Source: Gammaproteobacteria bacterium (GTDB taxonomy: Bacteria; Pseudomonadota; Gammaproteobacteria; Eutrophobiales; Eutrophobiaceae). From it: a DNA stretch of 64,000 nt. A model generated the notes under the pieces. That model had not been told where the DNA came from, ran no database searches, and was given only the letters and a program-made list of their open reading frames with translations. Below are positions 35,870 through 54,214 of the stretch, piece after piece (the first letter of the stretch is position 1; each line of letters begins with the position of its first letter). Position numbers and translations under genes: made by a program. The DNA is taken from the NCBI GenBank assembly GCA_041600575.1, contig JBFIJV010000001.1:33-64032 (forward strand). The letters are read 5' to 3'.

Positions 35870-35925
35870 ATTTATATAATAATATATATAATATATATAC
35901 ATATATATATAGTTATATATAAAAA
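35870..35925. repeat. AT-rich (TA)n/(ATATAT) tract. Candidate DNA-unwinding element or origin
   Basis: 'ataatatatataatatatatacatatatatatagttatatataaaaata' lies 60 bp after the primase gene, in a 255-bp non-coding gap. Confidence 0.4.
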
Positions 35926-37392: not shown

Positions 37393-37950
37393 ATGAATCC
37401 AGAAAAAGCACTCAGCAGATTGACAGCAAAGACCGGCGGCCTTGATGTGAATGTGCGTTCAACTGACAACACGTCTCTCAGTGGTTCAGATATTGCGTAC
37501 GCCTTGGGCGGTCTTAACCAGTTTGAGTCAAATTTAATATTGTATAAGTATGCGCAGGCTGATGATTCGTTATATGCCAGGCTGTTGCCCGACTGGTACG
37601 AACGTGTGCGTGTTGCGTGTTTGCGCGAGGGCTGGGGTAAGCATAGGAAAATACCTGACAACAGGTTGGTGTTACTTGCTCAAGCAACACTGGATGAATT
37701 TGTGGGTGATAGTCTTTGCAGGAAATGCAATGGAATTGGATCTGTAAGAACCTTAGATAAGATAGAGGTGTGTAGGACATGTGAAGGGAATCGAATACAG
37801 GCGTGGTCGTCTGCGCGTAGAGCGCGAAGTTGTGCAATGGATAGCCATAACTTTCGCAAGCTATGGAAGACACGTTACCGTTCGACGCTTGGCCGTCTAA
37901 TCAATATAGAACAGTACGCGTTATCGGAGGTTAAAAGGAGGCTGGGTTAA
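37393..37950 (+). CDS. Zinc-finger protein. Possible Q-like late antiterminator
   Basis: CRKC-x15-CRTC zinc ribbon in the C-terminal half. Position matches lambdoid Q except for the inserted minus-strand block. Confidence 0.3.
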   Translation: MNPEKALSRLTAKTGGLDVNVRSTDNTSLSGSDIAYALGGLNQFESNLILYKYAQADDSLYARLLPDWYERVRVACLREGWGKHRKIPDNRLVLLAQATLDEFVGDSLCRKCNGIGSVRTLDKIEVCRTCEGNRIQAWSSARRARSCAMDSHNFRKLWKTRYRSTLGRLINIEQYALSEVKRRLG

Positions 37951-40172: not shown

Positions 40173-40367
40173 TTATGAAAATTCATACTCAGGGTGATTG
40201 ACCTCGACCTTGTAACCAAGGCTCCGGATATGCCCCAGCGCATCTTTTGTGAGCGTCTTCGTGTTAGTTAATCGAGCAAAGACAAACGCATCTTTGTTAT
40301 CGGGGTAAAATCTTGCTTCACCATAAGTGTATTTGACTGTGACCTTGACTGTCATTTCGTTATTCAT
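40173..40367 (-). CDS. Small hypothetical protein (64 aa)
   Basis: Conserved box and hairpin immediately upstream. Confidence 0.45.
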   Translation of the reverse strand: MNNEMTVKVTVKYTYGEARFYPDNKDAFVFARLTNTKTLTKDALGHIRSLGYKVEVNHPEYEFS

Positions 40368-40371: not shown

Positions 40372-40417
40372 TAATCTCCTCATAATAGGTTGGTGGATGT
40401 TGGTAGTAATACCTACC
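40372..40417 (-). promoter_or_regulatory. Conserved box plus hairpin, copy 4
   Basis: hairpin(GGTAG..CTACC)-CAACATCCACCAACCTATTATGAGGAGATtacgttATG. Confidence 0.5.
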
Positions 40418-40462
40418 AGTGAGAGGACTCTTGCGAATCCCCTCTAGCTAGGTACTAGCTTG

Positions 40463-41731
40463 TTACATGTCTACCATGTCGTGAGCATGGATGACTTCAC
40501 CAATATCTGGTGAACCTTGTGGCAACGACTTGTCACCACATGACAACCACACCACCGGATAGTCCGGCACTGTCGAAGGTATGTCATTGCTAGAAACGTA
40601 CAGGTCAGTGATATAGATAAAACAATCAGGCCGAATACCCTTCTTGGCAACATATTCAAACGCCGGTTTCAAACAAGTACCGCCTCGACCACTATACTTA
40701 AAGGTCAAGTCTTCGCCTTGTTCGAACTCGTGAACACAGTCCTCGTTAACATCACCATAATCGTTATAAATAACGGTTATTTTCCGAGGTCGTGTATCGT
40801 CTGCGATGGCCTGTATTTCGGAGGCAGATTGCTGCAACTGCTCGTCAGATACTGAACCACTGGTGTCAACTGCCAGAACTAATTCCCCTGTTTCTTCACC
40901 ATCTGGTGAAGGTAGGAGAACGTCGTCCAGTGAGTTACGGCGATTGAACCGTCTATATGACCAGTCGTCACGTGCTGGCTGCATGAAGTCACGCAGCAGG
41001 CTTCGCCAGTCCTGTTGAGGTTTCAATAGCTCGTCAATTTCTCCAGTGATACCACCTTTGCTATTGCCGGATAAACGTTCAGCCATATCAGCTTGACGAA
41101 TGTCAAGGTCATCAACTGCTTGGACTGGAACGTTACCGTTCAAGTCTTTAGTACCTACGACCTTGCCAGATTTCGGCTTGTCACCGTCGGCAATCTTAGG
41201 AGCGTCTATTACGCCACCGCAACCGCCGGGGTCGCCACCATCTGACAATCCGTTGTCACCAGATTGACTATTGTCACCTCCGCCTTCACTCTCACCTTCA
41301 CCCTCACCCTCACCTTTCGGTGGTTTTTCCATGTGGATGATTTTGTATATGTCCTCAACGGACATACCGCTGAATTTAGGTTCAAGCATGGCGCTAGCTG
41401 GTAAAGCACAACCCGATTTCTTACAAATCGGATTGATTGCGTAGTCACATGCCACGTTCCAATCATGTGGATCACGTTCGCCACGTCTAAGCGTATGCTT
41501 AAATGCTACGTGGGCAATTTCATGAGCCAACACACCAGCAAATTCATCAACCGGTAAATTTGAAACAAATTCACGGTTGTAATAAATCTTTACGCCATCG
41601 GTTGCACATGTATCAAAATCATTACGTTCTACCAAAGGTAGTTTCATAATGAGCGAACCAAAAAACGGCTGGCCTGTCATGAGTCGAATTCGAGCACGTT
41701 CTATATGCTTTTTTAACTCTGAATCATTCAT
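40463..41731 (-). CDS. Zincin metallopeptidase-like plus von Willebrand A (vWA, MIDAS) protein. Partner of the MoxR ATPase
   Basis: 'LAHEIAHVAFKH' HExxH. Gly/Asp/Glu-rich linker. 'LVLAVDTSGSV' DxSxS MIDAS. Start set at the Met preceded by the conserved box. Confidence 0.65.
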   Translation of the reverse strand: MNDSELKKHIERARIRLMTGQPFFGSLIMKLPLVERNDFDTCATDGVKIYYNREFVSNLPVDEFAGVLAHEIAHVAFKHTLRRGERDPHDWNVACDYAINPICKKSGCALPASAMLEPKFSGMSVEDIYKIIHMEKPPKGEGEGEGESEGGGDNSQSGDNGLSDGGDPGGCGGVIDAPKIADGDKPKSGKVVGTKDLNGNVPVQAVDDLDIRQADMAERLSGNSKGGITGEIDELLKPQQDWRSLLRDFMQPARDDWSYRRFNRRNSLDDVLLPSPDGEETGELVLAVDTSGSVSDEQLQQSASEIQAIADDTRPRKITVIYNDYGDVNEDCVHEFEQGEDLTFKYSGRGGTCLKPAFEYVAKKGIRPDCFIYITDLYVSSNDIPSTVPDYPVVWLSCGDKSLPQGSPDIGEVIHAHDMVDM

Positions 41732-41737
41732 TTTGTA

Positions 41738-41782
41738 AATCTCCTCTATGTTGGTCTGTGGATGGTGGTAGAAAATATCTAC
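41738..41782 (-). promoter_or_regulatory. Conserved box plus hairpin, copy 5
   Basis: hairpin(GGTAGATATTTTCTACC)-ACCATCCACAGACCAACATAGAGGAGATttacaaaATG. Confidence 0.5.
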
Positions 41783-41886
41783 CAACATGCTGTCGGGATT
41801 AACTGACAACATGTTGCTAAATACTCGCATTAAAAAGTTGGGGAGAGTACGCAGTCCTAAGACTACGCACCCTCCACCACAGGTGG

Positions 41887-42738
41887 TTACGACTTGATAC
41901 CCAGTTGCTTATCAATATCAGCCAATAATGCTTTAGCATCATTAGCTGCCTCGATTCTGCGTTCTGGATAATTTCGTAATTCGCTTGCTGTACGGCTACC
42001 GATTGACTCCATCAATCGTTTTGCCATATCGTTAAGCAATGGGTCGTTGTTGATATTCAACAAAGGCAGGATTTCAGCCAGTTCCTTGATATTCCCTATA
42101 AGTGAATCTCTAAAAATTGACTCAACGTCCTGCAGTTTATCAACTGCATGACTGACAGCTTTATGTAGACGCTGCCATACCTCGGCCAATGCTGCAGTTT
42201 CTGCAGATTTCACCTTCGACTCAACGCTATCAGCTATTGCTGATATTTCATCGTCATTCAGTGAAACACGAAAGTCACCGCCATCAGGCACTGGCAATAA
42301 TTCAACGTTGAAGTTGAATTTACTGGCAACATCTTGTGGGTAGTCTGCATCTTTATACAGACCGCCTAAGATGCGCTGAGCCATTGACTTCAATTCAGGA
42401 TATTTAGTAATGAAATTACTAACAGCCGAATCAAACTCATATTGCCATTTCCTCATACCGTCCCGGTATGCCTCGAATCCCACAATAGGCAATATTCTTT
42501 GCCCATTGTTGTCCCAAGGCAGTGTGTGCTCATAATGAAAATCACGAACCTGATTGACTACCTGACCGATACGACGAAAGTCGTCACCCTGAATGAGTAG
42601 CTTGTTGAATTTACCAACGTCACCAGTTGCAGAGTTGCTAACAGCAACCTGTTGTGTCGCTTTCTTATCGTATTTACGAGCTGTCCATTGACTAATGGAT
42701 AGCTGAACAAGCATTGCTTTCTCGTTTAATTTTGACAT
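41887..42738 (-). CDS. Hypothetical protein (283 aa) between the MoxR and vWA genes
   Basis: Conserved box and hairpin upstream. Confidence 0.5.
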   Translation of the reverse strand: MSKLNEKAMLVQLSISQWTARKYDKKATQQVAVSNSATGDVGKFNKLLIQGDDFRRIGQVVNQVRDFHYEHTLPWDNNGQRILPIVGFEAYRDGMRKWQYEFDSAVSNFITKYPELKSMAQRILGGLYKDADYPQDVASKFNFNVELLPVPDGGDFRVSLNDDEISAIADSVESKVKSAETAALAEVWQRLHKAVSHAVDKLQDVESIFRDSLIGNIKELAEILPLLNINNDPLLNDMAKRLMESIGSRTASELRNYPERRIEAANDAKALLADIDKQLGIKS

Positions 42739-42742
42739 GTCA

Positions 42743-42791
42743 AAATCTCCTCTATGTTGGTTTGTGGATGGTGATGTATTGAAAATACATC
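42743..42791 (-). promoter_or_regulatory. Conserved box plus hairpin, copy 6
   Basis: hairpin(GATGTATTttcaAATACATC)-ACCATCCACAAACCAACATAGAGGAGATtttgacATG. Confidence 0.5.
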
Positions 42792-42836
42792 GGGCTGCCC
42801 ACTACCTAAGTAGTGAGCAGTATCGATATATTCTCG

Positions 42837-43892
42837 CTAGAGAATTACGTCTTGATTTTCTACACACCAATTGACGTATGCTGTGGACTTAACAAAGTCC
42901 TCATACTGTCCGTTAGCCTTTTGTTTATCGGTCATTGTCTGGACTGAAAACACTTCGAACTCTTTGTCCAATCTTTTCAGGTACTGAATAAATTGGCTGA
43001 AATTGTTCTTGTCAGCGACATTAGCAATAGCTCCAGCTATTGCGTAAAGTGCTCCCATGCTGCCGTCGTCTTCTGGAATCTGAGCACCATTCGGGTCTCT
43101 CGCAATTTCATCGACATTTGGCAGCTTGCCCCAGAGACTAAGAAAAGCAGTTAAATTAACTGCTTGTTCTTCACCGACGCACCCCGATAAAGCCAAGAAT
43201 TGGTCTTTATCATCGTAGCCAAGTCCAAGCTCAGTCCCTGCATAATCCCAGTTTCTGGGATTAGGGTTGACCTTGGCAGACCTGTCGAATTGGCAAAAAG
43301 CAGGACTATTGAAGCGTAAATACGCTACAATCTGTGTTGGTATGTTGTGCTGAATAGCCCAAACACACCAACGGTCTAAGTCAGCATTGACTTCGACCTC
43401 TGATAGTCGATCAGACATTGCATTTAATGTCTTCTCGACACCAGAACCATGCTCGATGCCATTCGTTGCTAAGACAACGAACGTATCTTCTGGTAATCGG
43501 TAGTGACTACCGATACCTCGTTCATTGCTATTACCTAATTGCATTAGCACCTTTTGCATCCCTCGATTGGCCTGACCAAATTCATCTATGAAAAGAATTT
43601 GCCTTGGCTTGCTTGGTAGGATTGCGTTAGCAACCATGTCCACCGTTTTGTTGTCCCTGTCGTAGACAGGTAAAGCAAAATCGGTAGCCTCGTGCTGACT
43701 CGGACGAATCGTAATCACTTCGTCGTAGTGTTTAGAAACACTAGGAAGCGAATCAATCATCGCCGTTTTGCCGACACCCGGTTGCCCTTTCATGACAATC
43801 GTTTTTGCCCAACGCTTCGTCTGGTTGTAACTGTCCATACGAGCACCAAGAAAAGCAGGCATGTCATATATTGATTTAATTATCTGTTGCAT
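42837..43892 (-). CDS. MoxR-family AAA+ ATPase
   Basis: Walker A 'GQPGVGKT' and Walker B 'ILFIDEF'. First gene of the block, behind the conserved box. Confidence 0.7.
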   Translation of the reverse strand: MQQIIKSIYDMPAFLGARMDSYNQTKRWAKTIVMKGQPGVGKTAMIDSLPSVSKHYDEVITIRPSQHEATDFALPVYDRDNKTVDMVANAILPSKPRQILFIDEFGQANRGMQKVLMQLGNSNERGIGSHYRLPEDTFVVLATNGIEHGSGVEKTLNAMSDRLSEVEVNADLDRWCVWAIQHNIPTQIVAYLRFNSPAFCQFDRSAKVNPNPRNWDYAGTELGLGYDDKDQFLALSGCVGEEQAVNLTAFLSLWGKLPNVDEIARDPNGAQIPEDDGSMGALYAIAGAIANVADKNNFSQFIQYLKRLDKEFEVFSVQTMTDKQKANGQYEDFVKSTAYVNWCVENQDVIL

Positions 43893-43898
43893 TTGTGT

Positions 43899-43947
43899 AT
43901 CTCCTCATAATAGGTTGGTGGATAGTGCGAAATACGAATGTATTTCA
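43899..43947 (-). promoter_or_regulatory. Conserved box plus hairpin, copy 7
   Basis: hairpin(GAAATACattcGTATTTC)-GCACTATCCACCAACCTATTATGAGGAGATacacaaATG. Confidence 0.5.
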
Positions 43948-44330
43948 GTAAAGGCAAAAGCGAACTTGCGTTCGCCTTCACCTTTGGTGAAACACACTCA
44001 CCACGCCACAAGGAACACAAAGTGTTCCCTGTGACATAACCATTAAGAGGGAGATTATTTGGTGACAGGTTTACGTTCTAATCAGCCTCTAGCTGGACGC
44101 AGATTTGACCTGTCGAACCCCGACTCTACCGTCCTAATTACTAACGGTAGCCGTTACGCTGTGCCGACTCCGCAAACGAGAACTTCGTTCGCCTTATCTT
44201 TCGTGGCACTGAATGCTTCGCAGCAATCAGCAAGCTGAACCAACAGCTAATCAGTCGTCACCAACTCACTGGTTTCACCAGTTTCGGCAATTTCAGCATC
44301 CTGCTGAGCCGAGTTGGAATTGTGTATCTA

Positions 44331-44391
44331 AGTCCTTAATCTTTTTTTTCCCTTTTTCACTTTGTTCAAAAGGAAAAAAAAGTTAAGGACT
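44331..44391. repeat. Long AT-rich palindrome (about 20-bp arms, 20-nt loop)
   Basis: AGTCCTTAATCTTTTTTTTCC ...loop... GGAAAAAAAAGTTAAGGACT. Confidence 0.6.
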
Positions 44392-44488
44392 AATAGGTTG
44401 GGGAATGATAGTGGAGACAAGTTACACTTGTCAAGGTAGACTTGCAGGCCGTTATTCTCGATTGTACCAATCGAAAGTCTGGCAACGC

Positions 44489-44533
44489 GTTTCACGTGAA
44501 ACCCTTGACACACGCGAGTGATTATGGATAATA
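44489..44533 (+). promoter_or_regulatory. Sigma70-like rightward promoter with an abutting perfect 14-bp palindrome. Candidate late promoter
   Basis: GTTTCACGTGAAAC (44489-44502), TTGACA (44505-10), 17 nt, ATAATA (44528-33). Confidence 0.5.
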
Positions 44534-44562
44534 TCAATAATAGTATTGTAGACCTCCTCAAA

Positions 44563-44595
44563 AGCCAGACTGCTAAAGCAGTCAGGCTTTTTTTA
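44563..44595 (+). terminator. Rho-independent terminator 30-60 nt downstream of the candidate late promoter
   Basis: AGCCAGACTGC-taaa-GCAGTCAGGCT followed by T7. Confidence 0.6.
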
Positions 44596-44697
44596 TGCCC
44601 ATCACAAAGTGATGAACAACTGACAACCGGTTGCTCAACGTTCAAGGTCATAGACCTTGTTTGGTGGGACATACGCACAGCGTGCGTTGGTTTTAAA

Positions 44698-44739
44698 AAC
44701 CTATGGTTATTAAAACACTTGAACTTATAACCTATGGTT
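44698..44739. promoter_or_regulatory. Two copies of the palindromic site AACCTATGGTT, 31 bp apart. The second lies within TTATAACCTATGGTTATAA. Operator-like
   Basis: Direct reading. Lies in the leader upstream of the first late gene. Confidence 0.4.
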
Positions 44740-44954
44740 ATAACAGGGCTGGCATAGCATGTCCTGTGCTGTGTATCTCCTTATAAATCAAGGAGATAGG
44801 GTGGTGCGTACTAGGTTCATTGCGTTCGAGAGTGTCTACACACAGCACGTTTTCGTGTATGCAAACGCGCTCTGAGCGCGGGGGCTAACACCACTGTATA
44901 TATAGAACTCACAAAAAATATTTCACAAAATTTTAAACCTTTGTAAAGGAAAAC

Positions 44955-45614
44955 TTGCACATGGCACTATCTCCATCTGACCAGCGACGACTTGTACGAA
45001 AACTGGAAGGACGATCTCGCGCCGAGAAAGAAGCAATCATTGGCGCTACTTACGAAGCGATGAATAAGGGCATAAAAGACCCGATAATCGCTGGTATCAC
45101 CCGGGCTAAAGAAAAGATTGCGATTGCCGCTGGCTCAAGCCCTGATAATGTAAATTACAATGGTATTCAGTACGGTAACGGGGGATGGAATGTCCCGGTT
45201 AATGTGCCGGGGCGAAGAATTTATGCGTCACAATTACCGGCTGTGTTTGGAAATCTTCCACAATTTAAAAATGGATATTTTGACACGCCGGCAAGCACGC
45301 GTACCGCGTTTGTTCCAAAAAGAACTGAGGCTGATGCATGGGTGCACGGACTCAGACAATATGAAGAAGGACTTAAAAATATCGAAGGGCAATTAGTTCA
45401 AGGCAAAGATGATCAATGGAAGTCAGCACAAAAAGAAATACGACTCGCTGACCTGAGAAAAAACAGCCAGGAACTTTTGTTCAATCAAAAGCCTCGCGGC
45501 TTTCAGCCGCAACAAAAAGGCATGTTCTCTCAATTGAATGGCGGCAATAACCCTATCAATCAAATTAGTCAGGGCTTCGATAAGAAGTTCGACATGGCGA
45601 GCAAGTTACGTTAA
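44955..45614 (+). CDS. Hypothetical protein (219 aa), first gene of the late operon
   Basis: ORF. ATG 44961 is an alternative start. Confidence 0.5.
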   Translation: MHMALSPSDQRRLVRKLEGRSRAEKEAIIGATYEAMNKGIKDPIIAGITRAKEKIAIAAGSSPDNVNYNGIQYGNGGWNVPVNVPGRRIYASQLPAVFGNLPQFKNGYFDTPASTRTAFVPKRTEADAWVHGLRQYEEGLKNIEGQLVQGKDDQWKSAQKEIRLADLRKNSQELLFNQKPRGFQPQQKGMFSQLNGGNNPINQISQGFDKKFDMASKLR

Positions 45615-46105
45615 TGGCTTACAAAAAACCAGACGGCAGATCAGGTAAGCCACCCACAGAAAAGCAAAAGCATTTTGCGCGTGAGTTCATCGCTAATGGC
45701 GGCAACGCTACTGAAGCCTTTCGTCAGGCGTACACCGATAAGCACGACGCGAAAACTACGCAAAGAATGGCGTTTAAGGTTAAGCAAAGCGCGGCGATTG
45801 CAGCAGAGATTGACCGGCTACAGAAAAAGATTGACCAAAAGTTCATGATTACAATCGGAAAGATAACGCAGGAACTTGATGAAAACAGGACTCTGGCAAA
45901 AGAACTTGGCAAGCCAGAGGCTATGAATGCAGCAACAATGGGAAAAGCGAAGCTACACGGATTAATCACTGACAAGCGTGAAACAAAACACGGCTTTGCA
46001 GAGGAGTTCGTGGATGCGTTGTTGGGGAACCTTCCGGACACGACTGGCCTGCCCGGCCAGCACAGGCAGTTACCGGAAGACTCTGATGATGAAGTGCTTC
46101 ATTAA
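45614..46105 (+). CDS. terS: Terminase small subunit
   Basis: 'EKQKHFAREFIANGGNATEAFRQAY' is the classic TerS HTH N-terminus. Immediately precedes TerL. Confidence 0.8.
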   Translation: MAYKKPDGRSGKPPTEKQKHFAREFIANGGNATEAFRQAYTDKHDAKTTQRMAFKVKQSAAIAAEIDRLQKKIDQKFMITIGKITQELDENRTLAKELGKPEAMNAATMGKAKLHGLITDKRETKHGFAEEFVDALLGNLPDTTGLPGQHRQLPEDSDDEVLH

Positions 46106-47658
46106 TGGCAGCGACAGTAACTGCACCATCGAAAGTTCTTTCGATAAAAGATCCGAGCGTAATAAAAAAACTGAATCAACAGCGTCGCAATTATGCAAAC
46201 CAAAAATGGCGCTTAAATAATTTATACAAAATAAAAGACAAGGAAGGCCACGTTGTTCAGTTCATTATGAACGAGCAGCAGGAAAATTTATATGACAACC
46301 AATGGTATCTCAATGTAGTTCTTAAAGCGCGTCAGCTAGGGTTTTCTACCTTCATTGATGTGTACATTCTTGATACGTGCTTGTTTAACGACAACATTGA
46401 TGCAGGCATCATCGCTCACCATCTTGACGACGCAAAGACTATCTTCGACGACAAGATTAAGTTTCCGTATGACAGTCTGCCGGAGTGGGTGCGTGGACAA
46501 AAAGAAGCAACAACCGATAGAGCAAACGAGATTGCATTTAGTAATGGTTCCAGAATCCGAGTTAGTACGTCGTTTCGTTCGGGAACGCTGCAAATCCTGC
46601 ATGTCTCTGAGTACGGGAAAATTGCGGCTAAATTTCCGGATAAGGCGCGAGAAATTAAAACTGGTGCATTCGAATCCGTTGCCACCGGGCAAAAGATATT
46701 CGTAGAGTCAACCGCTGAAGGGCGAGACGGCGAATTTTATGAGTTGTGTGTTCGCTCACAAGCGGCCACGAAGTCAAACAAAAAGCTGTCACCGCTAGAC
46801 TTCCGTTTTCACTTCTACCCTTGGTGGAAGAACCCGCTGTACCGTTTAGACCCTGCCGGGGTTGTTATCACACAAGATGACGCAAAGTATTTTGAAAATC
46901 TGGCAGAACGCGGCATCAAGCTGGACGACGGGCAATGCGCGTGGTGGGCAAAAAAATTCCAGACGCTTGGTGTGGACATTTGGAAAGAGCACCCAAGCTA
47001 CCCTGAAGAAGCATTTAAGGCATCTATTGATGGCGCTTACTATGGCACGGTAATGACCGGCCTGCGGCAAAAAGACCGCATAGGCAACGTGCCTTGGGAA
47101 CAAAGTTTCCCGGTACACACTGCTTGGGATTTAGGTATGAACGACGCTATGTCGATTGTCTTTTTTCAGCAAATTGTAAAAGACGTACGCATTATTGATT
47201 TCATCCAAGACCAAGACCGGGGCATCCCTTACTACGCTAAATTGCTCAAGGAGAAGCCGTACAGCTACGGCAATCACTACATGCCTCACGACATTAAGGT
47301 GCGCGATTTATCGACCGATATGGAGCGCAGGATAGACGTGGCGCGTAAGCATGGCATTGTCCCTATCGTGGAAGTGGCCAAGCCGCGAAACAATCAAGAC
47401 TTGATGGATCAAATCGATATGACGCGAAAATTTTTAAGCATGGCGTGGATAGATGAGAGTAATTGCAGTCACGTCATTAAAGCCCTCGAAGCCTATTCGA
47501 AGGAGTGGGACGAAAAGCTAGGGACATTCAAAAGCAATCCAAGACACAACTGGGCATCACACCCTGCTGACGCAGTAAGGTCAGGCGCAGTTGGTTTTAA
47601 ATCGGTGGTCTACGCTGCACAGCAGATGCTGGAACCGCCTCCACTTGAGGATTATTAA
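46105..47658 (+). CDS. terL: Terminase large subunit
   Basis: Deviant Walker A 'LKARQLGFST'. C-terminal RNaseH-like nuclease with 'HTAWDLGMND' first Asp. Confidence 0.8.
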   Translation: MAATVTAPSKVLSIKDPSVIKKLNQQRRNYANQKWRLNNLYKIKDKEGHVVQFIMNEQQENLYDNQWYLNVVLKARQLGFSTFIDVYILDTCLFNDNIDAGIIAHHLDDAKTIFDDKIKFPYDSLPEWVRGQKEATTDRANEIAFSNGSRIRVSTSFRSGTLQILHVSEYGKIAAKFPDKAREIKTGAFESVATGQKIFVESTAEGRDGEFYELCVRSQAATKSNKKLSPLDFRFHFYPWWKNPLYRLDPAGVVITQDDAKYFENLAERGIKLDDGQCAWWAKKFQTLGVDIWKEHPSYPEEAFKASIDGAYYGTVMTGLRQKDRIGNVPWEQSFPVHTAWDLGMNDAMSIVFFQQIVKDVRIIDFIQDQDRGIPYYAKLLKEKPYSYGNHYMPHDIKVRDLSTDMERRIDVARKHGIVPIVEVAKPRNNQDLMDQIDMTRKFLSMAWIDESNCSHVIKALEAYSKEWDEKLGTFKSNPRHNWASHPADAVRSGAVGFKSVVYAAQQMLEPPPLEDY

Positions 47659-47840
47659 TGGGTACTAACGATATTGGAAAACGAGTTGTCTTACTTGGCC
47701 TCCCTTGGGGATTCGTATTTATCGAAGTACAGGATGACGAAGATTAATGGCCGCAAACAACAACTCAAAACCAAACGTCAGACTGAAAAAAGTTGATTGG
47801 CGAGCACTGGTCTCGGAGTCCGTTGACTTGAACGCGCCGC

Positions 47841-48278
47841 ATGACTCGTATGAGTTTAGCAAGCGCACCTTCAAAGAAACCGACGGTGATGGAGTATATG
47901 ACAGTGAGTAGTTTAGCTTTGCCCGAATCAGTTACACGTGAGTTAGAAGAGCAACAGGTCAGCTCATTAGCAAAGAATATTATCGAAGTGCTGGACAAGC
48001 ATTATCCGACCTACACCGGGACATGGCACATATTAATTAACACAGATCCAAATGCCGGCGTTGTCCAAGTACGCAACTTGCGCATCAGTGGGACGATGGG
48101 TTTTCAAATTCCTATCACGTGGTTACATGACCATGACACGATGATGAAGTTAATCAAAAACAATGGCGGCGAATTGCTTGAACGTTTCCGTCTTAGTCGT
48201 GAGAGAGGCGCTTCTGTTGAAGACCAATTGAACGATGCTAAACGAAACTTTAAAGGCGAATTAATCCACGATGAGTGA
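47841..48278 (+). CDS. Hypothetical protein (145 aa or shorter)
   Basis: ORF between terL and the portal gene. Confidence 0.4.
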   Translation: MTRMSLASAPSKKPTVMEYMTVSSLALPESVTRELEEQQVSSLAKNIIEVLDKHYPTYTGTWHILINTDPNAGVVQVRNLRISGTMGFQIPITWLHDHDTMMKLIKNNGGELLERFRLSRERGASVEDQLNDAKRNFKGELIHDE

Positions 48279-50541
48279 CAAGTTCCAGTCTGCTGGGCGT
48301 ACCACAAACCAAAACAAGAATGATGAAGAAGTAACCGTCGCGGAAAATAGCGCTCCCGAATTGATGGATGACTTTGCCGACGCAACACTTATCAACGAAG
48401 CTATTAACACCCAGAAGAGCGAAGCTGAAGATAGTGAGTGGTTAGCTTTGGCGCGTGACGCGTATCAATCATCCACTGATTACTTTGATGCAAGCATAAG
48501 GAAAGGCGTTGAGAGGAATCTCGCGCATTTCAATATTCAGCACGCACCGGGTTCGAAATACCATTCTGACTTATACAAATACCGGGCGAAAGGGTTTCGA
48601 CCTAAAACACGTTCAGTCATTCGTCAGAACGAAGCAAAAGCGGCTGTCGCCTTATTCTCAACCAGCGACGTAGCACACGTCAGCGCAGAGAATGATTCAG
48701 ACATGAACATGCAAATGAACGCGGAAATAAACGAGAAGCTATTGCAGTACCGTTTAACAAACACAATGGATTGGTTCCAGACAGCCATTGGCGCGTATCA
48801 GGACGCACTGACAACCGGTGTCTGCTTATCTCACCAGCATTGGGATTACGAGGAAATCGTAGACGAGATAGAGGAAACACAGGAGGGCTTGTTGGGTGCT
48901 GAGCCGGTAATGCGGGAAGTCAGAACTATTGTGCGTGACACTCCAGCAGTTGACTTACGCCCTATTGAAAACTTGCGCTTCAGCCCGTCGGCTGACTGGC
49001 GCGACCCGGTAGGCACATCGCCTTATCTGGTTGATTTAATGCCAATGGAAATTGGCGCGGCCAAGCAAATGATTAAGCAGGGCCAAAAAACAAACATACC
49101 TTGGAAGGAAGATTTAGGCGAAGAAGTTTGGAAGCGCGGCATGACTAACGAATACGATTCAGTTCGTAGTATGCGCGAGAGAAACAAACAGGATTCAAAA
49201 GACCAGCAACATCAAACGTCTGACTTTGATACAGTTTGGATTCATCGCAATATTATTCGCAAAGAAGGTATTGATTATATTTTTTACACGCTGGGTGTTT
49301 ACCAGTTGTTATCAGACCCTATCCCATTAGTTAAAGAGTATGGCTTTCTAAAACTGGGTGAACGTCCTTACAAAATGGGTAAGGCCGTCATTGAGACGCA
49401 CAAGGTCTACCCTGAATCGTTGGCCGGGTTGGGCGCATCGCTACAGCACGAAGCTAACGATATTAATAACCAGCGACGTGACAACGTGCAGTTGGTTCTT
49501 AATCGACGCTACTACGCACGACGCGGCGCACAGATAGACTATCGCAGCCTGGTTAAAAACATTCCCGGCTCTGTTACTGAAATGGATAACATAACGAACG
49601 ATATTCGGAGTGATGCACCACCGGAAATAACCGGTAGCGCGTACCAAGAACAAGACCGGGTGAACATGGACTTTGATGAGTTGATGGGAACCTTCTCAAC
49701 GTCGTCTATCGGAAGTAATCGTCAACTGAATGAAACGGTTGGCGGCATGGAGATGCTGTCTGGCAGCGCTAATGACGTAACGGAATATCAGCTCCGGACT
49801 TTTGTACAAACATGGGTTGAGCCTGTTTTGAAACAGGTGATACAAATGGAGCAGTTCTACGAAACCAATGAAGCTCTGTTGCAGTTGATGGGTGATAAAA
49901 TCAAATCATTGGTGCGGTATAACAAGGGTGAAATAACCGACGCGCAGTTACAAGGCAACATGCTGGTACAAATCAATGTTGGTTTTGGCGCAACGAATCC
50001 GAAGCAAAAAATCGACAAGCTGGCAATGGGTTTGAATTACGTCATGCAAATGCCCGGCATGTCAGCACGCTTGAACAGTGACGAAGTAGGTAAGGAAGTA
50101 TTTGGCGCAATGGGTTATGACACCCACGAACGCTTCTTCCCACAATTAACCGAAGAACAAAAGCAAGCAGCTCAGCAACCACAAGACCCGAAGGTTATGG
50201 TTGAGCAAATGCGTGCACAAGCGAAGATGGCCGAACTCGAAAAACAACATGCAATGGACATGAAGCGCATGGAAGTCGAGGCCGCAATGAAGCTGCGCTC
50301 AATGCAACAGCAAAAAGCTATGTCGGACACAGACCATCAGGTGAAGATGGCATTGGCCGAGATGGACAAGGAAAAAGAAATGATGAATCTTGCTGCACGA
50401 CAGGAAATGTCACTGCAATCCATCAAGGCTCAGTTAGCGCAAAAGGCTATGTCCGAACGCGGCACGAACGAACGTTTCGTGGCCGAGAAAGAGTTCGCGC
50501 AGCAGCAGCCTGATGGAAATGGTTTTAGCAGCAAAACATAA
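48271..50541 (+). CDS. Portal protein (P22-like, with a long C-terminal coiled-coil barrel)
   Basis: 756 aa. Downstream of terL. C-terminal 120 aa is a Met/Gln/Ala/Lys-rich heptad coiled coil. Confidence 0.7.
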   Translation: MSDKFQSAGRTTNQNKNDEEVTVAENSAPELMDDFADATLINEAINTQKSEAEDSEWLALARDAYQSSTDYFDASIRKGVERNLAHFNIQHAPGSKYHSDLYKYRAKGFRPKTRSVIRQNEAKAAVALFSTSDVAHVSAENDSDMNMQMNAEINEKLLQYRLTNTMDWFQTAIGAYQDALTTGVCLSHQHWDYEEIVDEIEETQEGLLGAEPVMREVRTIVRDTPAVDLRPIENLRFSPSADWRDPVGTSPYLVDLMPMEIGAAKQMIKQGQKTNIPWKEDLGEEVWKRGMTNEYDSVRSMRERNKQDSKDQQHQTSDFDTVWIHRNIIRKEGIDYIFYTLGVYQLLSDPIPLVKEYGFLKLGERPYKMGKAVIETHKVYPESLAGLGASLQHEANDINNQRRDNVQLVLNRRYYARRGAQIDYRSLVKNIPGSVTEMDNITNDIRSDAPPEITGSAYQEQDRVNMDFDELMGTFSTSSIGSNRQLNETVGGMEMLSGSANDVTEYQLRTFVQTWVEPVLKQVIQMEQFYETNEALLQLMGDKIKSLVRYNKGEITDAQLQGNMLVQINVGFGATNPKQKIDKLAMGLNYVMQMPGMSARLNSDEVGKEVFGAMGYDTHERFFPQLTEEQKQAAQQPQDPKVMVEQMRAQAKMAELEKQHAMDMKRMEVEAAMKLRSMQQQKAMSDTDHQVKMALAEMDKEKEMMNLAARQEMSLQSIKAQLAQKAMSERGTNERFVAEKEFAQQQPDGNGFSSKT

Positions 50542-50571
50542 ATTGGGGTTTGGCATACACAAGAGGATGTT

Positions 50572-50895
50572 ATGAGCGACAACCCGACAGACGATGTACT
50601 GAAAGATTTTAATGAACAAGAGCAGCAGGAAATACGCCGAGCGAATTTAGGGATGGAAGCTGAAAGTTTTATGAGCAGCAACCTTTACCGATATATCGCA
50701 AGTAGAGCACAAATGGAATTTGAAGAAAAAATGAAAGAGTTAGTTACTTGCCCTGCTGACGACGTAAGTGAAAACACGCGTTTACGCAGCGAGATAAAAG
50801 TCTATATCGCCTTTGAAGACTGGCTTAAGGAAGCTGTGTCTTCCGGCAAAAATGCTGAGCAAAGTTTAAACGCAATGGATGCGACGGATAAGTAG
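50572..50895 (+). CDS. Hypothetical acidic protein (107 aa)
   Basis: GAGG RBS. Followed by a terminator. Confidence 0.45.
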   Translation: MSDNPTDDVLKDFNEQEQQEIRRANLGMEAESFMSSNLYRYIASRAQMEFEEKMKELVTCPADDVSENTRLRSEIKVYIAFEDWLKEAVSSGKNAEQSLNAMDATDK

Positions 50896-50913
50896 GGGAG
50901 TCTATTTATCAAC

Positions 50914-50937
50914 AAACCCGCTAACGCGGGTTTTTTT
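50914..50937 (+). terminator. Rho-independent terminator
   Basis: AAACCCGC-taac-GCGGGTTT followed by T7. Confidence 0.65.
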
Positions 50938-50968
50938 ACGCCTATCAAAAGACGGCGAGGAGCAATAA

Positions 50969-52099
50969 ATGAATACCAAAACAGCAGAAGCAAAAAAAGA
51001 AGATGGCTCGGCCACTGAGTTTAAAGCAGAAGAGAAAGCTATCTCCGAGGTAATGGAGCAAAAAGGCGTTGAAGAAGATGTGTCAGATGACTCACCTAAA
51101 AGCCGCCGGGAAGAAATTGCAGCGAAGTTTGCTAAAGAGCAGCGCGGCTACGACGGGGAAGAGGAAGTCGAAGACGAAGCTGACGATAAAGATAAGGATG
51201 ATGATTCAGAACGCAGCAAAGATGTGGAATCAACTGACGATGAGTTGCCAGATGATGACACTAAAGCTGATGAGCCTGATGAAGAATCTGAAATTATGGT
51301 TCAAGTCAAAATCAACGGCAGAACACGCGACGTTGAAAAATCAAAGATTGACGCGGTAGGTGGTGTAACCAACTACCAGAAAATTGTAGCTGCTGACGAA
51401 CAGTTTCGTGAAGCAGCAGAAAACAGAAAGATTTTAGATGAACAAGCAGAAGCCTTGCAAAGAATGGAGGCCGAGCTTGCTGAAAGAGAAAAAGCACTAT
51501 CGAAAGGACGTGCACAAGATACAGATGAACCACCCCTCAGTGGCGTTCAAATAAAAGAGGTTCGTGAGCAGGCAAAGAAGTACCGCGAAGCTCTTTTTAA
51601 TGGCGACGAAGATGCGGCAGACGAGGCTTTGGCTAACTTGATGGCAACGAAGCAGGATGCTTCTACTGGCAACAATGTAGACGAAATAATCGAAACAGCA
51701 GCAGGTCGCGCCATTCAGGTAATCGAACAGCAACGTTATCGACAGGAACTGACTCAAGCAGTTGAATCGTTCAATAAAGAGTACCAAGACATTACCGCAG
51801 ACCCTCGCCTCTATCAGATGGCCGATGCAGAAAGCGCAATTGTCAAAAAGGAACACCCTAATTGGACACCAGAGCAGATCCTGACAGAAGCAGGTGAGCG
51901 TATTCGGACATGGCATGGCAAAGACATTAAAAAGCCAGAGCCAGTGAACACCTCTATCGCGGACAAGAAAGCGGAAAAGCAACGATTATCAAACGTCAAG
52001 GCAGGCACGGTGCGTCAGCCTGCACCGCAAGGCAAGCCAAAAACAATCTCCAACTCTGAATACATTACGAATCTTCGTAAGCAACGCGGATTGGAATAA
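50969..52099 (+). CDS. Scaffolding protein
   Basis: Highly acidic. Long coiled coils. Lies between the portal and coat genes. Confidence 0.6.
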   Translation: MNTKTAEAKKEDGSATEFKAEEKAISEVMEQKGVEEDVSDDSPKSRREEIAAKFAKEQRGYDGEEEVEDEADDKDKDDDSERSKDVESTDDELPDDDTKADEPDEESEIMVQVKINGRTRDVEKSKIDAVGGVTNYQKIVAADEQFREAAENRKILDEQAEALQRMEAELAEREKALSKGRAQDTDEPPLSGVQIKEVREQAKKYREALFNGDEDAADEALANLMATKQDASTGNNVDEIIETAAGRAIQVIEQQRYRQELTQAVESFNKEYQDITADPRLYQMADAESAIVKKEHPNWTPEQILTEAGERIRTWHGKDIKKPEPVNTSIADKKAEKQRLSNVKAGTVRQPAPQGKPKTISNSEYITNLRKQRGLE

Positions 52100-52128
52100 T
52101 TTTAATTTAAATCATTGAGGTAATAACA

Positions 52129-53076
52129 ATGGCAGGACAAGTTTGGGAAACGAGCGCTGCTGGTGGGTATATGTATAGTGGGGAACTTTCACAAGTCCTT
52201 CGTAATGCACTCCAGCCGATGACTCGATTCGTACAGCATTGTGACGCAGATGATTTCACAGACAAAGGTCTTCACGCAGGTGAAGCCTTTCAGTGGAACA
52301 TTTATAGCGATGTAAGTGCACAAGGTGGGCGTTTAACGGAAAACGTTAGAATGCCTGAAACAAGTTTTACGATCACACAAGGCTCAGGCACTGTGTATGA
52401 GTTTGGTAATTCAGTTCCTTACTCTGGTTTGCTGGATGACCGTTCAGCTCACCCCGTAAAACAAATAATCCATAAGGCGCTTAAGAATGACTGCGTAAAG
52501 GCTTTTGAATCAGAAGCTCACGCTCAGTTTGCAGCAACGCCTTTAACCGTCACACCGGACAGTGGTAGCAGTGCAACAGCGATTGCATTTGAAACCACTG
52601 GCACACCAGCGGCGACAAACGCACTAGCGATGAACAACGTTCACGTTAAGTTGATCTCTGATCAGATGAAGGAACGTAATATTCCTGTCTATGAAGATGG
52701 CAACTATCGTTGTATTGGTCGTCCAAGCACGTTCCGTGATTTTAAAGATGACTTGGAAGCGATACATCAGTATCAAGACCAAGGCTTCAGTTTGATTATC
52801 AACGGTGAAATTGGTCGTTCGTACGAAGGTATTCGTTTCTTCGAGCAGACTGCAATTGCTTCACAGGGTTGGTCTGGTGGTTTATCTGATCAAGCCTTCT
52901 TCTTCGGTAGTGATACCGTTTTGGAAGCTATTGTTGTTCCGCCTGAAATACGCGGAAAACTTCCGGGTGACTTTGGTCGTGACAAGGGCGTTGCATGGTA
53001 TGCGCAAGAAGGTTTTGCATTAGTTCATACCATTGCAGCAGACGCAAGAATCGTTGAATGGGCATCAGCAGCTTAA
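52129..53076 (+). CDS. Major capsid protein (HK97-fold)
   Basis: 315 aa. Position after the scaffold. GAGG RBS. Confidence 0.65.
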   Translation: MAGQVWETSAAGGYMYSGELSQVLRNALQPMTRFVQHCDADDFTDKGLHAGEAFQWNIYSDVSAQGGRLTENVRMPETSFTITQGSGTVYEFGNSVPYSGLLDDRSAHPVKQIIHKALKNDCVKAFESEAHAQFAATPLTVTPDSGSSATAIAFETTGTPAATNALAMNNVHVKLISDQMKERNIPVYEDGNYRCIGRPSTFRDFKDDLEAIHQYQDQGFSLIINGEIGRSYEGIRFFEQTAIASQGWSGGLSDQAFFFGSDTVLEAIVVPPEIRGKLPGDFGRDKGVAWYAQEGFALVHTIAADARIVEWASAA

Positions 53077-53089
53077 TAGGAGGTATGTT

Positions 53090-53452
53090 ATGAGTTACTC
53101 AGAAAATGGTTTAACCGCGCATCGCTTCTCAGCTTTGACGCTTTCAGCAGCCGCTGAAATTGGTCGCATCTATGGTGTGGCCGGTTCAAAAGCAGAAATT
53201 GTCGATGTTGCAGTTATCGAAACCACTGATATTACAGTCGCAGACTGTACTGTCAAAATCGGTTCTGCTGCTGACGATAATGCGTATGGAACCTTAACAG
53301 TTCCTTTCGCTGGGTCTGTTGGTGACGGTGTAAATGGCATGGTGGCAGGCGTAGCAGATGCAGTTCCTGCTGATACTGAGATCGTTATTACTGCTGGTGG
53401 TGAATGCACTGCTGGCGCTGGTGACGTGATCGTTTATGTACGTTGGTCATAA
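53090..53452 (+). CDS. Head-associated or decoration-like protein (121 aa)
   Basis: AGGAGG RBS before ATG 53090. The ORF-track upstream extension overlaps the MCP gene. Confidence 0.45.
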   Translation: MSYSENGLTAHRFSALTLSAAAEIGRIYGVAGSKAEIVDVAVIETTDITVADCTVKIGSAADDNAYGTLTVPFAGSVGDGVNGMVAGVADAVPADTEIVITAGGECTAGAGDVIVYVRWS

Positions 53453-53463
53453 GGAGGCTAATT

Positions 53464-53658
53464 ATGCAAGGATATAAAGGTGGCGACAAAGCCAAAGTAG
53501 CAGGCGATTCGGTAAAGGACTTGGGCATAAGCTCGCAGTCTCGCATCGAGGGCGGCACGAAAATGAAACTTCGTGGCGAAACTTCTTTAGCTACTCAGCG
53601 CCCTACTCTCGCAAAGAGCAAGGTGTCGAGTGACCGAGGCAGTTTTACCTGTAAGTAA
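53464..53658 (+). CDS. Small hypothetical protein (64 aa)
   Basis: AAGGAGG RBS. Confidence 0.4.
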   Translation: MQGYKGGDKAKVAGDSVKDLGISSQSRIEGGTKMKLRGETSLATQRPTLAKSKVSSDRGSFTCK

Positions 53659-53660
53659 AA

Positions 53661-54029
53661 ATGAAGGGTGGGACAGAAATGTCCTGCCCTTTTTTTATGA
53701 TTGAAAAATGCCCAATCTGCAAAGTCAATAACCGCGCCTCTAACGGGCACGGCGCAAGGAAGGCACTATGCAATTCTTGCACACGGAAACCTTACACTAG
53801 ACACAAGAAAGAATACTGCGAGGAATGCAGCTTCGTAGCAAAGCACCGGGTTCAGCTTGATGTTGACCATGTTGATGGCAACAAGAAAAACAATGACCTA
53901 TCAAATTTAAAAACTCTCTGCGCTAACTGCCACAGACTTAAAACTCTGGAGAGTGGCGACGCATGGAATATCGGCCATAAGAAACATTTCGAAGATACGA
54001 AAATAACTTACATCGGAGAAGATGAATGA
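53661..54029 (+). CDS. HNH endonuclease
   Basis: CPIC...C..C zinc knuckle. 'DVDHVDGNKKNN...LCANCH' is the HNH core. Confidence 0.75.
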   Translation: MKGGTEMSCPFFMIEKCPICKVNNRASNGHGARKALCNSCTRKPYTRHKKEYCEECSFVAKHRVQLDVDHVDGNKKNNDLSNLKTLCANCHRLKTLESGDAWNIGHKKHFEDTKITYIGEDE

Positions 54030-54214
54030 GAAACAAAGTAATGAGCACTTTAAGGACTGATGTTGTTAAAGAAAAAGAAGGAAACAAAATGTCTGGCGGA
54101 AGAGACTGGTCTATTGGCAGTTACGGCATGAACGGCCGCCCCAGCCCACAGGAAGAAACGTGGTCAAAAAAAGATGCAATGGAAACAGGTCTTAACAGCA
54201 GGAAGCCGCTCTAA
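54026..54214 (+). CDS. Small hypothetical protein (62 aa)
   Basis: ATGA-coupled ORF. Confidence 0.35.
   Translation: MRNKVMSTLRTDVVKEKEGNKMSGGRDWSIGSYGMNGRPSPQEETWSKKDAMETGLNSRKPL

Follow-up and report, generated by a model that had tools for sequence, protein, structure and literature searches.

The 1-kb gap at 43893-44954 in this temperate phage genome is probably a two-way control region, acting on both the transcription and the translation of two back-to-back units. The claim is a joint one, with a probability of roughly 60%: a Q-type late switch facing rightward, a leader facing leftward that would hide a Shine-Dalgarno (SD) sequence, and operator-like dyads between them. The original prediction of a control region between divergent operons is supported by two conserved sigma-70 promoters that point in opposite directions ~70 bp apart. 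It had also described the gap as gene-free, and comparison of the whole gap with a related lineage revealed no conserved open reading frame; peptide matches fell on the same DNA blocks in several different frames and ended at indels. The richness in dyads is likewise real, with 21 perfect dyads (arm of at least 6, loop of at most 12) against a mean of 4.6 +/- 4.3 per 1062 nt for the genome, but this density is not confined to the gap and runs on through the coding sequence at 40.4-43.9 kb.

Among the individual elements that had been listed, the GGAACAC-aaa-GTGTTCC hairpin (GGAACACaaaGTGTTCC, 44012-44028), the perfect 14-bp palindrome GTTTCACGTGAAAC (44489-44502), the dyad AACCTATGGTTAT at both 44698 and 44729 and the elements AAGGTCataGACCTT, ACGCACagcGTGCGT, TCTCCTTataaatcAAGGAGA and CGCGCTCtGAGCGCG were all found. 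A repeat reported at 43961 and 44178 has both of its copies, with the pattern GAACTT..GTTCGCCTT..CTTT.GTG, but these differ by indels and share only the exact 10-mer CGTTCGCCTT; only the first is kept in the related lineage. The AT-rich inverted repeat at 44331-44391 is present too, with arms that measure 18 nt and are 89% complementary.

Conservation was judged against the single independent related lineage with synteny (L001; ATPase 69% and TerL 86% identical). The comparison rests on these two lineages only, with flanking proteins at 69-86% identity, and covariation therefore has little power. Two further sequences, L003 and L004, are near-identical to L001 and add nothing. Searches of GenBank phages, E. 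coli genomes and IMG/VR, with the DNA and with the flanking proteins as queries, gave no close relatives, and 20-mers from the conserved core and from two late-leader blocks gave only chance matches in coding DNA when compared with IMG/VR, JGI metagenomes and GTDB genomes (L002, L005-L008 and L016 were rejected on these grounds). Five more distant TerL relatives (L009-L013, 56-62% identity) have neither the leader element nor the promoter-terminator unit. The window is the whole stretch of 64,000 nucleotides that was analysed; its contig is circularly permuted and the late genes run across the window ends.

The rightward unit and the late leader

The features of the rightward unit, together with its putative activator gene, are as follows.

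37393-37950, plus strand: Q-lambda-family antiterminator gene, 185 aa (phrog_127 'Q-like', E 1.2e-7)
44505-44532, plus strand: sigma-70 promoter TTGACA-16-GATAAT, 11 of 12 consensus positions; candidate PR' with Q-binding element
44539-44594, plus strand: short predicted transcript of ~55 nt ending in an intrinsic terminator, candidate tR'
44600-44693, plus strand: late-leader hairpins at 44600-44614 and 44643-44659, kept in position and different in sequence in the related lineage; after the latter, a second terminator-like hairpin, ACGCACagcGTGCGT then a T-run
44695-44743, no strand assigned: two AACCTATGGTTAT dyads either side of the conserved block GTTATTAAAACACTTGAACtTATAAC
44811-44851, no strand assigned: conserved block ACTAGGTTCA..GCGTTCGAGAGTGTCTA..CAGCACGT
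44866-44880, no strand assigned: G+C-rich dyad CGCGCTCtGAGCGCG, in a G+C-rich patch of poorly conserved sequence
44895-44960, plus strand: A+T-rich conserved block CTGTATATATAGAAC...AAAAAATATTT...TTGTAAAGGA; its end is the SD of the first late gene

A promoter and a terminator had been placed here by the original prediction, and both are present, the terminator at 44560-44594 with its stem at 44560-44591 and seven T at 44588-44594. The related lineage has TTGACA-CACGCGAG...-TATTCT at the promoter. Its terminator stem is maintained through a compensatory change, but the short RNA shows no conservation in its 5' part. The first 8 nt of the spacer after the -35 hexamer, CACGCGAG, are invariant in both lineages, which is suggestive only of a Q-binding element. 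A candidate sigma-dependent pause element, TAGTAT, lies at about +2 to +7 in the window; the related lineage has no hexamer there with both A2 and T6.

Used as a lone query the Q-like protein had no match in Pfam or in the PDB, and its AlphaFold model (pLDDT 43) was too poor for use. A profile built from 70 homologues matches the Q-lambda structure 7UBM_Q over positions 11-170, close to the full length (E 4e-11), as well as 4MO1, and five of the 70 homologues match Pfam Antiterm (PF03589). The Q gene ends at 37950 and the candidate late promoter at 44505 is thus not adjacent to it but 6.5 kb downstream (the late cassette is defined in PMC9388147); neither a promoter nor a terminator was found in the 170 nt after the Q gene. 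With the promoter-terminator unit kept in the related lineage and a phage protein belonging to the Q-lambda family, the late-control function that had been listed as a candidate gains support, and promoter, terminator and Q most likely form a PR'-tR' late switch.

Such a switch would begin with a constitutive sigma-70 promoter giving a ~55-nt RNA that stops at the intrinsic terminator, with the weaker terminator-like hairpin beyond it. The Q-type antiterminator would load on RNA polymerase at the rightward promoter, with the spacer CACGCGAG as its binding element, and the polymerase would read through into the late operon, that is the 217-aa gene, terS, terL, portal and onward. The gap had been said to lie directly upstream of terS, but the 217-aa gene intervenes. 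This first late gene starts at ATG 44961, in the same frame as TTG 44955.

Between the terminator and the first late gene the block GTTATTAAAACACTTGAACtTATAAC is invariant in the related lineage and its flanking AACCTATGGTTAT dyads are partly conserved. The block at 44811-44851 could pair with a TTGAAC block on the plus strand; this pairing has no covariation between the lineages. No canonical sigma-70 match was found in the A+T-rich block at 44895-44960.

The predicted leftward leader RNA

The left half of the gap and the promoter-proximal DNA hold the following features.

44416-44502, no strand assigned: three operator-like dyads GACAAGTtacACTTGTC, TCGATTGtacCAATCGA and GTTTCACGTGAAAC, in untranscribed DNA around and between the promoters
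44405-44434, minus strand: sigma-70 promoter TTGACA-18-TATCAT, 11 of 12 consensus positions, predicted start near 44398
44331-44391, minus strand: 26-bp AU-rich hairpin (the AT-rich inverted repeat), ~8 nt from the predicted 5' end of the transcript
44121-44317, minus strand: central multi-helix part of the leader, helices 3-11 each with compensatory double changes
44061-44119, minus strand: irregular hairpin of 59 nt, almost invariant; no other DNA in the 13 kb of synteny is as well conserved
44038-44055, minus strand: conserved CU-rich anti-SD element AUCUCCCUCUUAAUGGUU
44007-44033, minus strand: variable hairpin GGAACAC-aaa-GTGTTCC, replaced in the related lineage by TTAACAG-acaag-CTGTTAA
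43937-43998, minus strand: 27-bp hairpin at the 3' end of the leader, 90% identical in the related lineage
43899-43923, minus strand: ATPase translation initiation region, with the CA-rich tract CCACCAACCUAUUAU and the SD GAGGAG at 43901-43906, ahead of the ATG at 43892-43890

The reading of the dyads as protein-binding sites survives only in part, in that the majority in the left half are stems belonging to a single long RNA leader on the minus strand. The trio of dyads that lies over the promoters and in the DNA between them probably consists of operator-like sites for lineage-specific regulators; at two of these three positions the related lineage carries other dyads, and no further copies were found in the genome, the immunity region included.

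The leftward promoter, which has TTGACA-17-TATGCT at the aligned place in the related lineage, would drive a leader of ~505 nt from its predicted start, ahead of the MoxR-ATPase/VWA operon. No other promoter was found for that operon, and none between the leader promoter and the gene. The leader folds on the minus strand at -199 kcal/mol (z -9.9 against shuffles), compared with -165.5 (z -6.3) for the plus strand of the same DNA, and it ranks third by energy, or second after correction for G+C, among 1270 windows genome-wide. The corresponding leader of the related lineage has a z of -9.45. The joint alifold energy of -149.6 is the most extreme among 46 control windows, the next of which reaches -111, and 28 pairs carry compensatory double changes, as against 1-2 in slid controls and 4-24 in coding windows folded for the same lineage pair. 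Some pairs are G-U and possible on the minus strand only; one-sided stem changes have no overall strand bias (55 vs 51, p 0.77). The core at 44041-44140 is 95-98% identical in 60-nt windows, above terL and portal and the highest in the 13 kb of synteny.

Hairpins that vary in sequence retain their pairing by way of compensatory changes. The AU-rich hairpin near the 5' end has seven compensatory pairs, and the central part contains hairpins at 44126-44150, 44268-44282 and 44293-44307 as well as a branched domain (44156-44258) that holds the second copy of the repeat. The 59-nt hairpin differs from its counterpart at a single position, where the change from U-G to U-A keeps the pair. In the 27-bp hairpin, helix 16 of the alifold structure, there are four one-sided changes between GC and GU and three invariant G-U pairs; its inner stem GGCGAAC-GCAA-GUUCGCU, with UUUUGCCUUU after it, has the appearance of an intrinsic terminator or attenuator.

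The anti-SD element pairs with the ATPase SD in both the MFE and the centroid structures, with pair probabilities of 0.66-0.98, and the probability that the SD is unpaired is 0.01 with the leader and 0.44 without it. In the related lineage the same pairing to the first downstream SD is predicted at a probability of ~0.7, even though the first gene is a different one. An exact 25-nt copy of the ATPase initiation region occurs at 40374-40398 ahead of a 64-aa open reading frame, which has no homology to the 55-aa frame of the related lineage.

Searches of Rfam 15 gave no match at the gathering score in the whole window, and at E <= 10 only miRNA-type hairpin noise; no copies of the leader element were found elsewhere. 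A tRNA-like 3' end, suggested by a 7-bp stem followed by ACCA in the invariant hairpin, was judged coincidental because ARAGORN gave no hit and the ACC takes part in pairing in the consensus fold.

From these parts the leader can be pictured as a 5' stabilising hairpin, a multi-helix body, the 59-nt hairpin, the anti-SD and a terminator-like 27-bp hairpin. In the off-state the anti-SD would by default lie on the SD of the first gene, so that translation, and perhaps elongation, would be held off until a trigger opens the SD. That trigger would most likely act on the invariant 59-nt hairpin.

The hairpin-rich domain and competing readings

The leftward operon into which the leader would run is the following.

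40463-43892, minus strand: leftward operon encoding a VWA/metallopeptidase DUF2201 protein, a DUF3150-like protein and a MoxR-type AAA ATPase (Pfam and PHROG matches)

The DUF3150-like match is weak and below the Pfam threshold, and comparison of the operon proteins with PADLOC defence systems gave no known system. Perfect hairpins are 4-5 times as frequent in these coding sequences as in codon-shuffled controls (15 vs 2.8, 12 vs 2.3 and 13 vs 3.6 dyads in the three genes); 18 of the 44 operon dyads are conserved in position in the related lineage, with compensatory changes among them, and the ATPase coding sequence folds with a z of -9.0. Dyad density is thus a property of a 4.6-kb domain (40.4-45.0 kb), of which the gap is the edge, and not of the gap alone. 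The homologous MoxR/VWA genes of phages LUZ7 and CRP-7 have no such enrichment.

As strong folding extends over the operon coding sequence, the leader may belong to a wider phenomenon and not be a discrete regulator. It is possible, if doubtful, that selection keeps dozens of short perfect hairpins across 40.4-45.0 kb, coding and non-coding, overprinted on three genes, as a domain-wide fold of either mRNA or single-stranded DNA. The domain could protect a translationally silent operon against Rho, RNases or antisense pairing, or mark the genome end that enters first, and the invariant 59-nt hairpin of the leader would become its control point. If true, this would be a phage genome feature of a kind without earlier description. 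If confirmed, the hairpin-saturated coding region would be a rare example of several genes overlaid with strong, conserved nucleic-acid structure, and it would suit clean tests since its codons can be recoded synonymously.

An unlikely rival reading places the hairpins at the level of DNA, with 40.4-45.0 kb as the last-packaged and first-injected genome end, beside a pac or cos near 44.9 kb. The hairpins would then form in single-stranded DNA following end resection, in the course of replication or upon entry, not in RNA, and the conserved blocks at 44.7-44.96 kb would be sites for terminase or a host factor. Pac and cos had been listed among the candidate functions, but the sequence contains no specific sign of either. 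The dyad excess does cover coding, non-coding and untranscribed promoter DNA, and it drops sharply at the start of the late operon, from 17 per kb at 44-45 kb to 4, 5 and 2, as it does in the related lineage. The terminase genes lie just downstream, the one-sided stem changes lack strand bias, as noted above, and the phage carries a Cas4-like exonuclease, a Sak4 annealase and an SSB. However, the long leader helices need G-U pairs, which are A-C mismatches on the opposite strand, and the sense fold beats the antisense fold by 25 kcal per 500 nt compared with a margin of 8-12 in other genes that run leftward. Sequence conservation is lacking in the G+C-rich patch near 44.87 kb, and the arms, at 6-10 bp, are short for extrusion as cruciforms.

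It is just as improbable that the left half is a stand-alone gene for a trans-acting non-coding RNA of ~450 nt, running from the promoter at 44434-44405 to the terminator-like hairpin at 43937-43998, rather than chiefly a leader. The element is bounded by a promoter on one side and by a terminator-like, U-tailed stem on the other, its core is more conserved than any coding sequence, and the two helices of 26-27 bp resemble RNase III substrates and could release the body. The U-tract is broken (UUUUGCCUUU), however, and in both lineages the anti-SD/SD pairing binds the element to the downstream gene, despite the different first gene. The leftward operon would also be left with no other promoter that could be found, and the element has neither an Rfam family nor copies elsewhere.

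The promoter-terminator unit might, beyond its part in the Q switch, encode a trans-acting small RNA for the leftward operon or for host genes, which is very improbable. The short RNA in the window carries CCUCCUCA, complementary to the ATPase SD; 44547-44563 and the ATPase initiation region read in antisense share a 17-nt similarity, and short transcripts from PR', StxS among them, can serve as small RNAs (PMC7547250). Against this, the 5' part of the RNA is not conserved, the duplexes predicted for it and the leader do not surpass shuffled controls, and the sites are non-homologous in the two lineages.

A replication origin, which had also been listed as a candidate function, is hardly credible here, for beside two 13-nt direct repeats 31 bp apart, several dyads and A+T-rich stretches the gap has no iteron or other tandem array, no DnaA-box cluster (one DnaA-box-like site, at a chance-level count genome-wide) and no AT-rich unwinding tract, its two repeat copies are not conserved in the related lineage, and the (TA)n tract adjoining the primase gene, 9 kb away, is a better candidate.

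The two-way control region, if correct, has consequences on each side. A Q-lambda-type antiterminator would work with a promoter several kilobases off and with inserted genes between, which would be useful for annotating temperate phages beyond the enteric lambdoids. On the other side, the leader is a candidate for a new RNA that regulates in cis the MoxR-ATPase/VWA module, a gene set common in phages and conflict systems.

Comparison with known systems

The gap resembles a lambda-type cos region in being non-coding, in lying upstream of terS/terL and in containing dyads, a G+C-rich patch and a conserved block rich in A+T, but it has no recognisable cosN or R-site pattern, the 217-aa gene intervenes and the G+C patch is not conserved. 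GOLLD and ROOL, the large phage RNAs in Rfam, resemble the leader in being long, multi-helix and phage-encoded; the leader differs in matching neither of them, nor any Rfam model even at E <= 10, and in standing directly before a gene, in two lineages only.

The leader is closer to the SD-sequestering leaders, which include riboswitch expression platforms, RNA thermometers and the lambda N leader. It shares with them a CU-rich strand that lies in cis on the SD of the first gene, with a terminator-like hairpin beside the pairing element. It differs in its far greater length (~505 nt, with at least 15 helices), in having no known aptamer or Rfam match and in that the downstream coding sequence is itself abnormally structured.

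The rightward unit is best compared with lambda PR'-qut-tR', the source of 6S RNA and, in Stx phages, of StxS. In both a Q-lambda-family protein is encoded and a strong sigma-70 promoter before the late genes gives a short terminated transcript, with the late operon downstream. The element bound by lambda Q sits in the -35/-10 spacer, and it is in this spacer that the conserved sequence is found here. The lambda PR' transcript is 194 nt, whereas that predicted here is ~55 nt, and a conserved, hairpin-rich leader of ~365 nt lies between the terminator and the first late gene. The late operon opens with the 217-aa gene and terminase rather than with lysis genes, and the 6.5 kb between Q and the promoter contain a leftward block of six to seven genes. 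The arrangement would thus be that of a lambda PR'-tR' switch in which an unrelated leftward gene block has been inserted between Q and its promoter.

Gene order and relatives of the phage

The window covers almost all of a 64,069-nt phage contig whose gene content is that of a temperate tailed phage.

Principal features of the phage (window coordinates)
23862-24791, integrase
32428-33138, CI-like HTH/S24 repressor
33483-35810, primase
Same gene set, RuvC-like resolvase
37393-37950, Q-like protein, 185 aa
38120-43892, leftward block ending in VWA/metallopeptidase (DUF2201), DUF3150-like protein (a weak match, below threshold) and MoxR-type AAA ATPase
Gap of 1,062 nt between the leftward block and the late operon
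From ATG 44961, rightward late operon: 217-aa gene, then terS (Terminase_2), terL and portal

The late operon leaves the window at its right end and resumes at its left end (1-23400 and 44961-64000), so the record is circularly permuted: its start is arbitrary and its ends are not physical genome ends. A genome end might lie at the start of the late genes, the sole hint being the sharp right edge of the hairpin domain. The large terminase (46105-47658) matched no Pfam or NCBIfam family, although it has hundreds of homologues (40-62% identity), and the packaging type is not inferable from membership of its family. SU10-type portal and adaptor domains are carried by the terminase relatives L009, L011 and L012. 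The original prediction had named an origin among the candidate functions of the gap; nothing origin-like was found there. A (TA)n-like tract of ~50 nt, extremely A+T-rich and directly after the primase gene (35873-35921), is a stronger candidate than the gap for an origin or a DNA-unwinding element.

The phage lineage is rare, close relatives being absent from GenBank phages, E. coli genomes and IMG/VR. A search among 5.8 billion proteins found the ATPase only on its own contig, with one relative at 69% identity and the next best at 28%. That relative is encoded on the ENA contig L001, which has the same gene order to the left and right of a gap of 1,349 nt; two contigs from crustacean metagenomes differ little from L001. 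Searches of IMG/VR, JGI metagenomes and GTDB genomes with 17-20-mers from conserved blocks gave chance matches only. With only one independent relative found, every comparative statement rests on two lineages. Over 13 kb of aligned synteny with L001 the most conserved 60-nt windows fall inside the gap (95-98% identity at 44041-44140 and 90% at 43941-44000), and the maxima for terL, portal and capsid are 87-90%. Hairpins between the invariant blocks have diverged in sequence and retained their pairing.

The structured leader and a proposed translational gate

All the dyads, repeats and other elements listed in the original prediction were found in the gap, and its gene-free character held, as none of its ORFs is conserved with L001. 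The two copies of a GAACTT... repeat are present, but indels separate them and just the first is conserved in L001. Dyad density was likewise borne out, with 21 perfect dyads (arm of at least 6, loop of at most 12) where windows of this size average 4.6 +/- 4.3 across the genome, but it is no evidence for a protein-binding site at each dyad and it extends past the ATPase start. The observation is confirmed and its interpretation partly supported.

A minus-strand sigma-70 promoter lies at 44434-44405 (TTGACA-18-TATCAT), with TTGACA-17-TATGCT at the aligned position in L001. Folding the minus strand between the predicted start (~44398) and the start codon of the ATPase gave -199 kcal/mol (z -9.9 relative to dinucleotide shuffles), compared with -165.5 (z -6.3) for the plus strand; the L001 leader gives z -9.45. 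In a 500-nt scan of both strands (1,270 windows) two windows had a lower energy than the leader, and just one did once G+C was corrected for.

Elements of the predicted leader, 5' to 3', minus strand
44391-44331, AU-rich hairpin, 26 bp
Three-way junction and two small hairpins
Variable branched domain
44150-44126, hairpin
44119-44061, irregular hairpin, 59 nt, nearly invariant
44055-44038, CU-rich strand AUCUCCCUCUUAAUGGUU
44033-44007, variable hairpin
43937-43998, 27-bp helix, inner stem GNRA-capped, then UUUUGCCUUU
CA-rich initiation region with Shine-Dalgarno (SD) sequence GAGGAG

The consensus fold of the two leaders has 17 helices and 140 pairs, of which 28 have both partners changed; sliding the partners by 1-3 columns leaves 1-2 such pairs. 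Since alifold, rerun on 46 further windows of the same sequence pair, also gave compensatory counts of 4-24, the 28 taken alone is weak. The consensus energy was -149.6 versus -111 for the next best window. The 27-bp helix (43937-43998) and the invariant hairpin require G-U pairs, whose plus-strand equivalents are A-C mismatches, and four one-sided changes in them are exchanges between GC and GU, so the left half of the gap is read as minus-strand RNA. This leader matched no Rfam family and may be a new cis-regulatory RNA. The inner stem of the 27-bp helix followed by UUUUGCCUUU looks like an attenuator.

The mechanism with most support is a default-off translational gate, perhaps also a transcriptional one. 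The predicted MFE, centroid and ensemble structures all pair the CU-rich strand to the SD (probability 0.66-0.98), and the SD is unpaired with probability 0.01 with the leader versus 0.44 without it. The same pairing occurs in L001 (~0.7), though the first gene there is an extra 55-aa ORF. By default the SD would be held by the CU-rich strand and translation of the leftward operon would be off. A trigger opening the gate would act on the invariant hairpin, because this is the sole part conserved beyond the needs of pairing. The closing stem of that hairpin (44061-44119) has 7 bp, GACAGGU/ACCUGUC, and ACCA comes next, an arrangement like the acceptor end of a tRNA; as ARAGORN predicted no tRNA and the consensus fold has the ACC in pairs, the likeness is probably coincidence.

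Parts of the initiation region recur. The CA-rich motif CCAACCTATTA is also found at the leader 5' end (44391-44401). An unlisted 64-aa ORF between the VWA gene and the next gene (40173-40367, minus strand) is preceded at 40374-40398 by an exact 25-nt copy of the ATPase initiation region (ATCCACCAACCTATTATGAGGAGAT). The 55-aa ORF of L001 (9744-9911, plus strand), between leader and ATPase gene, comes with a further copy of the CA-rich initiation region and is not homologous to the 64-aa ORF. At 44770-44798 the minus strand reads CACCACCCUA-UCUCCUUgauuuauAAGGAGA-UACACA, a pseudo initiation region similar to that of the ATPase, but its SD is sequestered within a 9-bp hairpin and the ORF that follows has just 11 codons; L001 does not conserve the region, which may be the remnant of a gene.

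A hairpin-saturated leftward operon

The most interesting lead is the operon itself. Dyad density stays high past the ATPase start, with per-kb counts of 11, 9, 16, 18 and 17 over 40-45 kb and ~3 elsewhere in the genome, the single exception being the (TA)n tract at 35.9 kb. The coding sequences (40400-43892) exceed codon-shuffled controls 4-5x in the number of perfect short hairpins.

Perfect dyads per gene, observed and codon-shuffled
MoxR ATPase, 15, 2.8 +/- 1.6
DUF3150-like, 12, 2.3 +/- 1.6
VWA, 13, 3.6 +/- 2.1
terL, portal and primase, at codon-shuffle expectation

The ATPase coding sequence folds with z -9.0, and the L001 operon (10001-13376) shows the same dyad excess. A perfect dyad stands at the same aligned L001 position for 18/44 coding dyads, several through compensatory changes (e.g. 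CACTACttagGTAGTG vs CATCACttcgGTGATG); the Watson-Crick compensatory share of changed stem pairs was 19% versus 6% in chance dyads of late genes (Fisher p 1e-4). Phages LUZ7 and CRP-7 lack the enrichment in their homologous genes, as do the TerL relatives. The hairpins may act in RNA or in single-stranded DNA. In favour of RNA, the sense-strand fold is 25 kcal per 500 nt more stable than the antisense one, where other leftward genes differ by 8-12, and G-U pairs in stem extensions lean slightly towards the sense strand; one-sided stem changes have no strand preference (55 vs 51). Inside the VWA/metallopeptidase gene a (TCACCT) hexamer is repeated in tandem (41274-41316, ~7 copies, 18-nt super-period).

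The rightward promoter and a probable late switch

Between the two promoters, DNA transcribed by neither unit holds three perfect dyads, and L001 has different dyads at two of the three places. No further copies were found anywhere in the genome, immunity region included, and they look like operators of lineage-specific regulators. A rightward sigma-70 promoter at 44505-44532 (TTGACA-16-GATAAT) matches 11/12 consensus positions, and the 8 nt directly after its -35 element are invariant between the two lineages. Beyond ~22 nt that are not conserved, a conserved terminator follows (a stem at 44560-44591 with seven T). That the short RNA between them acts on the leftward operon is unlikely, its body not being conserved and its predicted duplexes being no better than shuffles. 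Beyond the terminator are two hairpins position-conserved with L001, a second terminator-like hairpin, and then three invariant blocks at 44706-44731, 44811-44851 and 44895-44960.

The 185-aa protein alone gave only a weak PHROG 'Q-like' match and an unusable AlphaFold model. A profile built from 70 of its homologues matched the Q-lambda structures 7UBM_Q (E 4e-11, nearly full length) and 4MO1, and 5/70 homologues matched Pfam Antiterm. No alternative promoter was found in the 170 nt after the Q gene. A Q cassette is defined by the Q gene, the late promoter PR', a pause element, a terminator and downstream genes (PMC9388147); the phage has these parts, but its promoter does not adjoin Q and a pause element could not be verified. 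Judged from sequence, the probable late switch is of a known kind in an unusual layout.
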